Of a stretch of 64,000 nt of DNA, positions 30,579-39,251 are shown one piece after another. This DNA is from Desulfurivibrio sp. (GTDB lineage Bacteria; Desulfobacterota; Desulfobulbia; Desulfobulbales; SURF-16). The DNA is taken from the NCBI GenBank assembly GCA_003605035.1, contig QZKJ01000118.1:18304-82303 (forward strand). Reading direction: 5' to 3'. Under the pieces are notes generated by a model, which searched no databases, was not told the origin of the DNA, and saw only the letters and a program-made list of their open reading frames with translations. Made by a program: the position numbers and the translations under genes. Every line of letters begins with the position of its first letter. Position 1 is the stretch's first letter.

Positions 30579-31877
30579 ATGGTGCCCATGCAGCCGACCC
30601 ATCTTGATTTTGCCATAGACCATCTCGGCCCCCGGGAGCGGATTTCCCCCATCAACAACATTGACTTTGTCGATGATCGGGAAAGGGTTCTCTATCATAC
30701 CGACCCGGCCCTGGTGGAGGATTGTCGGCGTCGTAACGAGATCCCTCCCTCCTTCGAGGTGGCCGGTCCCCGGCGGCAGATCTTTTTTGATCCGGCTGAC
30801 CTGCATTGCGGCATTGTCAGCTGCGGCGGACTGTGTCCCGGCATCAACGATGTCATCCGCGCCATGGTGCTGAGCCTGTTTTACCACTACGGGGTGACCA
30901 GCATCTGCGGTTTCCGTTACGGCTTCGAGGGGCTGAATCCCGCGTTCGGTCATTCCCCCCTGGAACTTTCGCCGGAGCTGGTCAATGACATCCACCAGAA
31001 AGGCGGCACCATTCTGGGCACCTCCAGGGGACCGCAGGATATCAGCGTCCTGGTGGACACCCTGGAGCGGCGGGGGATCGGCATACTGTTCACCATCGGC
31101 GGCGACGGCACCCTGCGCGGCAGCCGGGCCATTGCCGCTGAAATCAAGCGCCGTGGTCTGCAGATAGCCGTAGTCGGGGTGCCCAAGACTATCGATAATG
31201 ATATCGCCTTTGTGGACCAGTCCTTTGGCTTTGCCACCGCGGTCACCGAAACCAGGACGGCGGTCTACGCGGCGCATATGGAAGCGGTGGGAGCCCGCAA
31301 CGGCATCGGCCTGGTCAAATTGATGGGACGTCAATCCGGCTTCATTGCCGCCTATGCGACCCTGGCCAGCAGTGATGTCAACTTCTGCCTGGTGCCCGAG
31401 ATCCGTTTCACCACCGCGGCGTTTCTGGAGGCCCTGCGGGAACGTCTCGTCAGCAAGCGGCACGCAGTGATCGTGGCGGCGGAGGGGGCAGGCCAGGATC
31501 TGATGGAGGCCACCGGCCAGCGCGACGCCTCCGGCAATATCCGGCTCGGCGACATCGGCACCTTCCTGCGCCAGGCCATCCAGGAGCATTTCAGCTCGAT
31601 AGGCCTGGAATACACCCTGAAATACATTGATCCCAGCTACACCATCCGCAGTGTGCGGTCCAACGCCTATGACTCGGTGTTCTGTCTGCTGCTGGGGCAT
31701 AATGCGGTGCACGCCGGCATGGCAGGTTACACCAACATGCTGGTGGGCTACTGGAAAAACCAGTTTACCCATGTGCCGATCTCGCTGGCCGTCTCCCGGC
31801 GTAAAAAGATCGAGCCCGGCGACCGGTTGTGGAACAATGTCCTGGCGGCCACGGGGCAGCCGGCCGCCATGTACTGA
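30579..31877 (+). CDS. 6-phosphofructokinase, long-form paralogue (GGDG-type, likely ATP-dependent)
   Basis: 432 aa. SCGGLCPGINDVIRA, TIGGDGTLRGS, VGVPKTIDNDI, KLMGRQSGFIA. An alternative ATG at 30588 has better SD spacing (AAAGGA 8 nt upstream). Confidence 0.88.
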   Translation: MVPMQPTHLDFAIDHLGPRERISPINNIDFVDDRERVLYHTDPALVEDCRRRNEIPPSFEVAGPRRQIFFDPADLHCGIVSCGGLCPGINDVIRAMVLSLFYHYGVTSICGFRYGFEGLNPAFGHSPLELSPELVNDIHQKGGTILGTSRGPQDISVLVDTLERRGIGILFTIGGDGTLRGSRAIAAEIKRRGLQIAVVGVPKTIDNDIAFVDQSFGFATAVTETRTAVYAAHMEAVGARNGIGLVKLMGRQSGFIAAYATLASSDVNFCLVPEIRFTTAAFLEALRERLVSKRHAVIVAAEGAGQDLMEATGQRDASGNIRLGDIGTFLRQAIQEHFSSIGLEYTLKYIDPSYTIRSVRSNAYDSVFCLLLGHNAVHAGMAGYTNMLVGYWKNQFTHVPISLAVSRRKKIEPGDRLWNNVLAATGQPAAMY

Positions 31878-31956
31878 AACGTTGTAGCGTCCGAACGTTC
31901 CAGCGTTTCAGTGATCAAACGTTTGAACGTTGCAACGTTACACCGTTTGAACCTTT
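31877..31956. repeat. tandem array of ~10 units of an 8-bp repeat (core AACGTT)
   Basis: AAACGTTG TAGCGTCC GAACGTTC CAGCGTTT CAGTGATC AAACGTTT GAACGTTG CAACGTTA CACCGTTT GAACCTTT. The array fills the whole convergent spacer between the pfk stop and the malQ stop. Confidence 0.85.
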
Positions 31957-33857
31957 CATTCCCCTGCCGACTCCAGTTGCCGGATTAGTTCGTCACGGCT
32001 GCTTCCTCCTGCTTCCCGCCTTCCGGCCCGGAGCGCCATGGCCAGGGCTCCGGGGATGTGCAGAGCGCGGCCCTGGCCGGCCAGCTCCGGGTAACGCTGG
32101 CGGAAATCCGGCGTAATCCGCAGGGACCAGTTGTGGTCGCCTGTTGTGCCCGGAATATTGTAGGCCTCCTCGATGCCGAACAGATCGGTGAAAAAGAGCA
32201 TGACGTTTGTTCCCGGCCCGACAAAGAGATCGGCGAATTTGGCCTGGGCGAGCGCTCCGGCTGCAGACGCAGTGCGTTCTATCCATTCTGCCCGTTCGCG
32301 CTCGGGGATGCGCAGCCGCTCCGCCAGATAGGCGGCCTGCCGGTCTGCGACGCCCGAAGCAACCCATTGTCCGGCCAGCTGCCAGATCGACGGGGTATCA
32401 TGATTGCCCAGCATCAGCCAGTCTTCCGGCCGGGCGTTTTCGCTGCGGTAGACATCGCGGGGGTTGTCCAGGTCCGCCTTCTGGGTAACCCGGAAACGGC
32501 CGAGTCCGTGACGCGCCATCACCTGGCGGATCGGGCAGGGCTGGGTGCTGAGAATTTCGCAGGAGATCTCGCAGACGCCGCGGCAGTTGTCCCGGGCCGA
32601 TTCCATCACCATCTCAAAGAGCGCGGCATAGCGGTCGATCTGTTCCGGCTCCAGCTGCCGGACCCAGTCGTCATCCCAGCGTCTGGCCGCGGGGTTGAGC
32701 TGCCCGGGCCGGGCAATGGCAAAGGGGGCCAGCTCCGGATGATCGGCCAGGTTCGGGGAGGCGAAGAGCCGGGCGCCCTGCTGCACGGCCAGGATGGGGT
32801 CCGGCTGACCGGCGCGGTAGACCCATGGGCAGATGAGACCATGGGGGTGATCGATGCGCAGCCCTTCGTATTCTTCAAACAGTTTGTCAATCCTGGCCCG
32901 GAAGAAACGAAGCGCCGGGCCGGGCCGGCCATCCGACTGGTGATACCGGCGCGGATCGAGCACCGCGTAGTTCCACGGCTGGCCGGCCGGGTTGGTGCGG
33001 CTCGGCGGGGCGCCCATCACGTAATCGCGCAGCAGAAAGGACCGGGCATACCACGCGTCGCGGCCGGATAGGCCGATCTGGCAGTCACCGAACAGGTTGA
33101 GGCCGCGCAGGCCGCAGCCCAGCCTGAACTCCCGGTGCAGCTCGGCCAGCAGGAACTGGATGAAACAGTATTCGTCGATCTCCGCCTGATGACATGTACG
33201 CAGCTCGGCCAGCCTCTGGCGGGCCGCCTCTTCCTGACCTCTGGCCGGCGCGAAGAGACTCTGGTCCAGTCCTGCCTGGCCGTCTTCTCCCCAGTGCCGC
33301 CAGTTGCGGCCGTGGTAGCGGCGGCGGAGGATTTCATAGCAGCCGTCCCGCTCCAGCCAGTCGGCATGGCGGCGCCGGAAGGCGGCAAAGGCCTCCTGCT
33401 GCTCCAAAGACCCTGCGCTGAAACGGTGGCGCGCCTCCTGTTCGATAACCGCGATGGCCCGGGCGGCAAAGAGTGACTGGACGCGGTTTGCCGGCAGGGG
33501 CCGCTGGGCGGCCAGCCCGGCCAGTTGATCAGCGGCCAGTAGATTCCAGGGCGGCTCGCACAGACGCAGGGTGGCCAGGGAGAGGGGATTTCTGGAAAAC
33601 AGGCTGCCGTCGTAGGGGGAGGGATTGGCCGGGGTGGTGATGCCCTGGGGGCCGAGCTGGATGCCGTTAAAGCCCAGGATCCGGGCAAAGTCCAGAAAAT
33701 CGGCCGCCCCCCTGGAATAGGGCGAGCCGCGGCCGATGTCCTCCTCCGGCCGGCTGGGAAAGGCGGCGTCATGCATGCCCAGCAGAAAGTTGTGGATGCC
33801 GAGCACCTGCAGCGCCTCCTTTACCGCCGGCCTCAGTTTTTCAAAATGTTCGATCAT
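31956..33857 (-). CDS. malQ: 4-alpha-glucanotransferase (amylomaltase, GH77)
   Basis: 633 aa. GH77-like catalytic motifs GLRIDHPHGL and MLGNHDTPS. Sits within the glucan locus. Confidence 0.8.
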   Translation of the reverse strand: MIEHFEKLRPAVKEALQVLGIHNFLLGMHDAAFPSRPEEDIGRGSPYSRGAADFLDFARILGFNGIQLGPQGITTPANPSPYDGSLFSRNPLSLATLRLCEPPWNLLAADQLAGLAAQRPLPANRVQSLFAARAIAVIEQEARHRFSAGSLEQQEAFAAFRRRHADWLERDGCYEILRRRYHGRNWRHWGEDGQAGLDQSLFAPARGQEEAARQRLAELRTCHQAEIDEYCFIQFLLAELHREFRLGCGLRGLNLFGDCQIGLSGRDAWYARSFLLRDYVMGAPPSRTNPAGQPWNYAVLDPRRYHQSDGRPGPALRFFRARIDKLFEEYEGLRIDHPHGLICPWVYRAGQPDPILAVQQGARLFASPNLADHPELAPFAIARPGQLNPAARRWDDDWVRQLEPEQIDRYAALFEMVMESARDNCRGVCEISCEILSTQPCPIRQVMARHGLGRFRVTQKADLDNPRDVYRSENARPEDWLMLGNHDTPSIWQLAGQWVASGVADRQAAYLAERLRIPERERAEWIERTASAAGALAQAKFADLFVGPGTNVMLFFTDLFGIEEAYNIPGTTGDHNWSLRITPDFRQRYPELAGQGRALHIPGALAMALRAGRREAGGSSRDELIRQLESAGE

Positions 33858-33858
33858 G

Positions 33859-38800: not shown

Positions 38801-39161
38801 CCCTTCTGGCCGCCTGAAACCAGGGGTGCTGGTCCGAGGTGTGGTTGATGACCAGTTCGGTGATGACCCGGATTTTGCGGCGGTGCGCCTCCCGAATAAA
38901 GGTGCGGAAATCCCGCAGGGAGCCGTAGCGCGGATGAATGTCCCGGTAGTTGGCGATGTCGTAACCGTCATCCTTGAAAGGCGATGGATAGAAGGGCAGC
39001 AGCCAGACCGCCGAGACGCCGAGCTGCTGGATGTAGTCGAGTTTTTCGATCAGGCCGCGAAAATCCCCGGTGCCGTCGCCGTTGCTGTCTTTGTATGCCT
39101 TGACATGCAGCTCATAGATGATTGCGTCCTTGTACCAGAGGGGATTGTTTTTTTCCGGCAT
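35814..39161 (-). CDS. treS: trehalose synthase (maltose alpha-D-glucosyltransferase) fused to maltokinase (TreS-Mak/Pep2)
   Basis: 1115 aa. N-terminal GH13 TreS motifs ([46 protein letters not shown]). C-terminal kinase-like domain with [11 protein letters not shown]. 4-nt overlap with the glgB start. Confidence 0.9.
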
Positions 39162-39171
39162 CGGCTCTCCT

Positions 39172-39251
39172 TAAGCGTTACAGCGTTTCAACGTTTCAAC
39201 GCTCGAACGCTCGAACGCTTAAACGTTTGAACGCTTGATCGCTTGAACGTC
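39172..39251. repeat. tandem array of 10 units of an 8-bp repeat (core AACGYT) between the glgE stop and the treS start
   Basis: TAAGCGTT ACAGCGTT TCAACGTT TCAACGCT CGAACGCT CGAACGCT TAAACGTT TGAACGCT TGATCGCT TGAACGTC. The array ends 1 nt from the treS SD (GGAGAG on the minus strand). Confidence 0.9.

Follow-up and report, generated by a model that had tools for sequence, protein, structure and literature searches.

Do the two octamer arrays that lie around the malQ-glgB-treS genes of this bacterium belong to glucan metabolism, or to the genome at large? The stretch analyzed (the window) comprises 64,000 nucleotides of contig QZKJ01000118.1 of Desulfurivibrio sp., and the arrays, each about 80 bp of an 8-bp AACGYT unit, fill gene spacers within it. 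A first-pass annotation of the window took them as brackets around the block and suggested regulator-binding sites, RNA-level elements, slippage-prone sequences or remnants of a recombination that delivered the block. The octamer arrays are not a dedicated control element of glucan metabolism. We consider it likely that those in the window are gene-less copies of a lineage-specific, polarized octamer family, the counterparts of cassettes that carry a PF05635 gene, and that this selfish or near-neutral DNA was inserted into a compact operon.

Three arrays were identified in the window by Tandem Repeats Finder (TRF) and direct reading.

About 31878 to 31955, no strand assigned: octamer array 1, AACGYTNN, 9-10 units, 72% matches by TRF.
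39174 to 39251, no strand assigned: octamer array 2, 10 units, 80-82% matches by TRF.
33859 to 33927, no strand assigned: nonamer array, AACCCAAYC, 7.8 copies, occupying the glgB-malQ spacer.

TRF assigns the octamer arrays a period of 8 and 5.1-7.5 copies; direct reading gives 9-10 phased units. With a unit in the 5-11 bp range repeated head-to-tail in at least about four copies, they are short tandem repeats. Array 1 spans the convergent spacer from the pfk stop codon (31875-31877) to the malQ stop codon (31956-31958). Array 2 sits between the glgE stop codon (39256-39258) and the Shine-Dalgarno sequence of treS-mak, 4 nt past the former and 12 nt ahead of the treS-mak start (39161). On the + strand it begins with AGCGTT-type units and continues with AACGCT-type units. 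Both octamer arrays are therefore present where the first-pass annotation placed them, filling their spacers in 8-bp phase. Its observation that every spacer of the malQ-glgB-treS block holds a repeat also stands for every real spacer; treS and glgB overlap by 4 nt, so that no spacer exists there. A two-unit octamer pattern has 12 matches in the window compared with none in 100 shuffles, and TRF detects no further strong arrays in these 64 kb. The claim that nothing comparable occurs elsewhere holds within the window by TRF and fails for the genome as a whole.

A phase-aware scan of the genome (G000; 4.22 Mb, 118 contigs, 57% GC) detected at least 24 AACGYT octamer arrays, spread over 20 contigs, compared with none in a 2 Mb Markov simulation. 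Open reading frames (ORFs) were called crudely, longest first and with arrays masked. We annotated the 40 genes next to 20 of the other octamer arrays and found no glucan-related gene among them. The neighbors include flagellin, FliD, two nitrogenase-type subunits, ParC/GyrA, a DnaJ-type chaperone and Rpe, as well as KdsB, Mdh, arginine decarboxylase, HrpB and an ABC-F protein. The first-pass annotation had named arrays spread over intergenic DNA with no glucan link as the outcome that would speak against its association, and this is the distribution found. With scattered arrays, unrelated neighbors and array-free blocks in relatives (see below), the arrays are not special to malQ-glgB-treS. 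An assembly artefact was ruled out, the same arrays being present at orthologous sites in up to eight independent assemblies.

In all, this genome has at least six dispersed array families with units of 7-9 bp, the octamer among them. A GAGTGAG-type heptamer family has 84 arrays, a second heptamer family 15, and three nonamer families 18-30 each. These five families account for 170 arrays; with the octamers there are 194 arrays at about 155 sites. Of all 194, 189 lie between ORFs. Arrays of all families are enriched in convergent spacers (28% compared with 19%, p=0.004) and depleted in divergent spacers (13% compared with 20%, p=0.009). The median distance between an octamer array in a co-directional spacer and the stop codon upstream of it is 2 nt. 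The sites are clustered, with 15 triplets within 7.4 kb where 4.0 +/- 2.1 are expected, and many such groups exist besides the trio in the window. The nonamer member of that trio, G-rich on the transcribed strand of the glgB-malQ spacer, belongs to another dispersed family, which numbers 18 arrays genome-wide and includes several pairs in which a C-rich arm follows a G-rich one.

Octamer arrays are not plain direct repeats; unit polarity switches within the array. L-type units (AGCGTT, AACGAT, AGCGAT) lead their reverse-complement R-type units (AACGCT, ATCGTT, ATCGCT). L precedes R in 85 unit pairs compared with 6 in the reverse order, and in 15 of the 16 arrays having both types. The arrays have the form [rc(U)]n[U]m, where rc is the reverse complement and U is approximately KRAACGCT, always with the same handedness; this can also be written [AGCGTT-YM]n[KR-AACGCT]m. 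Array size ranges from 4 to 17 units across the loci counted in this genome and its genus. The sole clear exception to the polarity lies between fliD and a flagellin gene (G000 C12:3737-3774), where R-type units stand before an L-type unit. Handedness extends to the other families: adjacent arrays of the same family are arranged '+-' 25 times and '-+' once, with a ratio of 12:0 for the heptamer and 10:0 for the nonamer TGACTGGTC, the G-richer strand always forming the 5' arm. No common core sequence was found across the spacers between paired heptamer or nonamer arms.

The minus-strand RNA of array 2 is predicted to form a single hairpin of −35.7 kcal/mol (z −4.1 against dinucleotide shuffles), and array 1 gives −34.1 kcal/mol (z −5.3) with hairpins on both strands; the hairpins of the window arrays range from −28 to −36 kcal/mol. 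Such values, the location of arrays at gene 3' ends and the fact that the stems of 23S rRNA intervening sequences (IVS) are RNase III substrates (PMC4990558) would suit hairpins under selection, acting as bidirectional terminators, RNase III sites or 3'-end stabilizers in the manner of repetitive extragenic palindromic (REP) sequences and bacterial interspersed mosaic elements (BIME). Shuffling the order of the 8-mers, however, yields folds as stable as those of the observed arrays (mean z −0.2, n=16), and the fold therefore stems from the quasi-palindromic unit. For the same reason, selection for hairpins was rejected as the source of the polarity. Among 19 terminator-like sites (GC-rich stem and T run) called in 31000-42500, none lies within either array, no credible Rfam match was found in 31000-42000, and array 2 lies within an operon, immediately before a Shine-Dalgarno sequence. 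Selected hairpins are thus an unlikely explanation. The proposal of an RNA-level element survives in a generic form, given the strong hairpin potential, and not as something specific to the block. In the glgE-treS mRNA, array 2 is predicted to form a long, imperfect stem just ahead of the treS Shine-Dalgarno sequence; as a by-product, this stem could serve as a processing or stabilizing site.

Comparison with relatives indicates that sites are kept while their contents change. A three-unit octamer pattern occurs in seven of the eight other genomes of the genus and is patchy in the family and order; its reversed-pattern control gave zero matches in all genomes scanned. Beyond these, a sample of 400 other genomes from across the phylum had one with a four-unit pattern. 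Every genus genome that has the kdsB-mdh spacer (eight in all) carries an octamer array there, invariably phased and oriented L-to-R, with about 5 to 17 units whose sequence differs between species. In this genome (G000 C18:52786-52884) the kdsB frame runs approximately 17 codons into the array, which encodes the tail of KdsB; kdsB terminates before the array in G002, G006 and G007, suggesting that arrays can rewrite C-termini. In the convergent cyclophilin-parC spacer, an array extends from stop to stop in seven of nine species. It is down to about two units in G003 and missing in G004, a genome with no octamer arrays anywhere. At such sites, by this comparison, the array persists long-term while unit number and sequence change. 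The differences in unit number between species, and the arrays that supply a stop or C-terminal codons, as at KdsB, might recall phase-variation loci. The arrays lie past stop codons of genes with housekeeping neighbors, outside the reading frames or promoters of surface or restriction genes. In these contexts the first-pass suggestion of slippage-prone contingency sequences is highly improbable.

Arrays of this kind are closely associated with genes of the PF05635 family. This genome has three clear PF05635 genes, each located between inverted 7- or 9-mer arrays (GCTGATG/CATGAGC; GTCTGACTG/CAGACCAGT; GACAGGA/TCCTGAC). All 26 PF05635 loci examined, from 26 genomes of the order, have a 7-9 bp array no more than approximately 250 bp away on one side or both (both in 15 of them), with a unit that varies from locus to locus. 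For the AACGYT octamer the partner is a single 149-aa ortholog (identity of at least 73%), which lies between octamer arrays in 9/9 genomes (G001, G003, G005, G006, G007, G008, G016, G023 and G038; the G003 and G005 copies are broken). All nine fall among the 12 genomes with octamer arrays, and the ortholog is absent from all 29 array-less genomes. Ortholog and arrays also contrast together within genera, in G023 compared with G014 and in G004 compared with the rest of its genus. In G023 the only exact three-unit matches adjoin the ortholog. One ortholog flank consists of a flawless (GAAACGCT)x12, and a second is about 35 units long. In G034, G031 and G021 the homologs, at approximately 60% identity, are flanked by heptamer arrays with other units; the distributions of protein subfamily and repeat unit are therefore linked. 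The 149-aa protein matches PDB 2GSC, a Xanthomonas S23p-family pentamer (E 5e-14). PF05635 proteins resemble Avd, the accessory protein of diversity-generating retroelements (DGRs; PMC10053308), and in Coxiella the IVS is a selfish, S23p-encoding stem-loop, which RNase III cleaves (PMC4990558). In the octamer cassettes the arrays abut the stop codon and the Shine-Dalgarno sequence of the PF05635 gene, as array 2 does at the glgE stop and the treS Shine-Dalgarno sequence.

Two further observations concern these cassettes. At locus L146 (G005:C39, around 1425-1500) a REP-like hairpin pair (GGGCGGGCATGAAACCCGC... / GGGCAGGCATAAAACCTGCCCCTAC) interrupts the octamer-flanked PF05635 gene; as read from the assembly, a repeat of one class here disrupts the gene of another. 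A conserved hairpin motif, GGTAGGAC..TATTTGTCC (also TAGGAC..TATTTGTCC), is found immediately beyond the edge of the octamer cassette in three genera (G016:C12:164790-164830; G023:C28:194415-194445; G038:C19:6760-6790). It could be a further part of the cassette element and is absent from this genome.

The positions of cassettes in genomes of the same genus map to contig C1 of this genome, at 222-227 kb, where a cluster of octamer arrays is found without the gene. At one of these sites G007 has array-gene-array; here there is one array, the left end of which matches the left array of G007 and the right end the right array. At the second, G005 has array-pseudogene-array, and here there is a short degenerate array made up, in like manner, of the outer ends of both flanks. 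A 2.4 kb segment in the same region (G000 C1:224290-226700) has octamer arrays on both sides and is missing at the same place in G001. From these alignments, octamer arrays appear to act as insertion and deletion junctions. The window arrays enclose no PF05635 ORF, and the PF05635 genes of the genome are on other contigs. With no ORF between them and octamer cassettes in nine relatives, the window arrays are therefore gene-less relatives and not full cassettes.

A global DNA-binding protein that occupies the arrays cooperatively, one dimer per 8-bp unit, would account for the 8-bp phase and the CG core, both retained across species despite turnover, and for the fixed orientation rule. The omega protein, which binds tandem 7-bp heptads, discriminates heptad orientations, and MetJ binds tandem 8-bp met boxes. 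The first-pass annotation had noted that an 8-bp period does not match the 10.5-bp helical repeat; these two repressors show that this is no objection in itself. Like their operators, the octamer arrays consist of tandem 7-8 bp units with a palindromic ACGT-type core. MetJ and omega bind cooperatively despite the helical mismatch, at 2-10 units in the promoters of a defined regulon with a known repressor, whereas the octamer arrays avoid divergent promoter regions and their functionally unrelated neighbors form no coherent regulon. In Geobacter metallireducens, paired octa- and heptanucleotide sites on opposite strands, classes 1-3, are annotated as putative global-regulator sites in the part of the genome paper that covers them (Aklujkar et al. 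2009, PMC2700814). The number of units at one site here (approximately 5-17) also speaks against a binder, as does G004, which has the same genes and zero arrays; no candidate protein was identified, none having been sought. We therefore consider a global binder distinctly improbable, with the reservation that the binder might be the PF05635 protein itself, which would merge this explanation with the preferred one.

The genes around the window arrays, named by Pfam, are the following.

30579 to 31877, + strand: phosphofructokinase (pfk); its stop codon abuts array 1.
31956 to 33857, − strand: malQ, 4-alpha-glucanotransferase, GH77.
33919 to 35817, − strand: glgB, branching enzyme.
35814 to 39161, − strand: treS-mak fusion, trehalose synthase / maltokinase.
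39256 to 41265, − strand: glgE, maltosyltransferase, outside the array 'bracket'.

A glgX-like gene also belongs to the cluster by Pfam. The treS-mak fusion was found in only three of nine genus genomes. Of these, G001 and G003 carry the block without arrays, as does a Desulfoarculaceae metagenome-assembled genome (MAG) in which the glgE-treS-glgB-malQ order is the same as in the window. In all three the glgE-treS spacer is 13-14 nt and holds a stop codon, a Shine-Dalgarno sequence and ATG; in this genome approximately 80 bp of array is lodged between the glgE stop and the treS Shine-Dalgarno sequence. Compared at orthologous loci, then, the glucan block of relatives is array-free, while elsewhere the arrays persist with varying copy number.

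The cluster is 61-73% identical to that of G001 and G003, compared with 92-96% for the housekeeping proteins Mdh and ParC. On these identities it is a divergent accessory segment. The Desulfoarculaceae MAG is about as close to the cluster (window 31956-44469) as the same-genus copies are, and this suggests horizontal acquisition. An accessory cluster, together with the array-bounded 2.4 kb segment on contig C1, would be compatible with arrays that are remnants of the recombination that delivered malQ-glgB-treS. However, glgE (64%) and glgX (62%), both outside the bracket, are as divergent as treS-mak (61%) and glgB (73%) inside it, and the arrays therefore do not delimit a delivered segment. 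They are native to the genus and absent from the closest foreign cluster found, that of the Desulfoarculaceae MAG, so they arrived after the cluster. Delivery of the block is accordingly a very unlikely origin; the idea of recombination remnants survives for octamer arrays at indel junctions elsewhere, and not for the edges of the glucan block.

Octamer arrays occupy gene spacers, usually flush with a stop codon, and in related genomes they form both flanks of a small cassette encoding a PF05635 four-helix-bundle protein similar to those of 23S rRNA IVS and to DGR Avd. In the reading that we prefer, gene-less arrays would arise by deletion between the flanking arrays, or would be sites that the gene has not entered. 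The family would behave as selfish or near-neutral intergenic DNA, each site being kept long-term while slippage and recombination keep altering unit number and sequence. In the window, octamer arrays would have entered the short spacers of the compact glgE-treS-glgB-malQ operon. As to the route, we tentatively propose, from the arrangement of cassettes and gene-less sites, that the gene and one array may exit by recombination between like-oriented flanking arrays and enter another array in reverse, and that slippage then rewrites unit number; this is a plausible scheme in which we place limited confidence. The exit would take the form of an excised circle and the re-entry would be of the Campbell type.

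Several observations weigh against this reading. No PF05635 gene or fragment lies beside either window array. This genome, G002 and G034 have octamer arrays and no close ortholog in their assemblies (93.6%, 88% and 82% complete). Part of the association of gene and array is inherent, since arrays accompany the gene at whatever place it occupies. The fixed polarity does not follow from hairpin stability, as shuffled unit orders give equally stable hairpins. Finally, the strict phasing, the invariant CG core and the persistence in eight species at kdsB-mdh could reflect selection for a function.

How do the octamer arrays relate to repeats already described? The G. metallireducens sites are likewise dispersed and intergenic, with several unit families per genome. 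In the part of that paper devoted to them, they consist of 3-5 tandem octa- or heptanucleotide units, mostly in opposite-strand pairs at variable distance, and the units differ from ours (GTTGCTYN, TCTCCGTS, MTYCTGA); a polarity rule, a PF05635 link and cross-species turnover, all seen here, are not reported for the sites in that part (PMC2700814). The GGGAATC and G-rich heptamer arrays of Xanthomonas and Nostoc (Rehm et al. 2015, PMC4692102) and the prokaryotic long simple-sequence repeats (LSSRs; Mrazek et al. 2007, as summarized in PMC4679880) share with the octamers an intergenic location (approximately 90%), a position nearer the upstream stop than the next start and unrelated metabolic neighbors, and, as far as the accounts drawn on here extend, have no tie to insertion sequences and no known function. 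Unlike the Xanthomonas and Nostoc heptamers, the octamer is an 8-bp quasi-palindrome without G-quadruplex potential, switches polarity internally and is tied to one PF05635 ortholog. The short tandemly repeated repetitive (STRR) heptamers of cyanobacteria and the TAACTGA repeats of Beggiatoaceae also place one unit in tandem at many intergenic sites, with a patchy phylogeny that suggests horizontal spread by no known mechanism (MacGregor 2015, PMC4679880). The TAACTGA repeats are mostly just upstream of start codons in 2-6 copies, whereas the octamer arrays favor gene 3' ends and have 5-17 units.

The IVS of Coxiella and Leptospira 23S rRNA offer the same combination of a PF05635-family ORF between complementary arms that form a long stem. 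They are considered selfish elements of horizontal origin, with a stem that RNase III cleaves (PMC4990558). The window arrays have complementary arms of this type, as judged by L-to-R polarity and hairpins, though they fold no better than unit shuffles. In contrast to IVS, the sites are between protein-coding genes and not in 23S rRNA, the arms are tandem arrays of variable length, and most copies here, both window arrays included, are without an ORF.

REP, BIME and REPIN elements also lie between genes, form hairpins and are enriched both at the 3' ends of genes and within operons; the classic case is the REP of malE-malF. They differ in having a fixed-length unit with a conserved head and a link to REP-associated tyrosine transposases (RAYTs); the octamer arrays vary in length, keep a strict 8-bp period and have no adjacent Y1_Tnp gene. 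A RAYT link is unsupported in this genome, since none of its four Y1-transposase genes (C116, C63, C95 and C29), which could be RAYTs, has an array as neighbor. The stretches between paired arrays at G000 C18:49617-49783, C3:69616-69788, C10:25156-25288 and C20:7673-7861 hold REP-like palindromes that have a GTAGG(A/G)GC head, such as GTAGGAGCGGGCCATGCCCGCGA and its complement, and resemble Pseudomonas-type REPs. The spacers of heptamer arms at G000 C114:100-139, C5:64785-64825 and C21:43634-43677 resemble intrinsic terminators (hairpin and T run), and bidirectional terminators may be the source of the purine- and pyrimidine-rich heptamer arms, which would have grown out of their A- and T-tracts. 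The idea that a reverse transcriptase adds repeats from a template has no support, the sole such gene in the genome being a fragment at a contig edge.

The class of short-unit intergenic repeats is already known from cyanobacteria, Xanthomonas and Nostoc (PMC4692102), Beggiatoaceae (PMC4679880) and G. metallireducens (PMC2700814). New relative to these papers are the polarity rule within arrays, sites that persist across a genus while their units turn over, the specific match between a single PF05635 ortholog and a single unit, and the gene-less counterparts. For annotation, octamer arrays should not be labeled regulatory elements of treS or malQ. Repeats of this class have been reported for decades (cyanobacteria, Xanthomonas, Geobacter, Beggiatoaceae), and their origin and function have no accepted account. 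This lineage provides a tractable comparative case, with an octamer unit that is confined to a few related lineages, strictly polarized and stable in site yet rewritten in sequence, and that travels with one identifiable small gene whose family includes Avd. Two hypotheses become directly testable: one in which the PF05635 protein binds the repeats or propagates them, and one in which arrays recombine with each other to move the cassette. We see only a small chance that each PF05635 subfamily recognizes its own 7-9 bp repeat, the two together forming a transposase-free mobile cassette that seeds gene-less arrays. If that were true, PF05635-repeat cassettes would explain the long-unexplained heptamer, STRR and LSSR repeats of many bacterial phyla, and the head-to-head handedness would be the footprint of cassette copying or integration.

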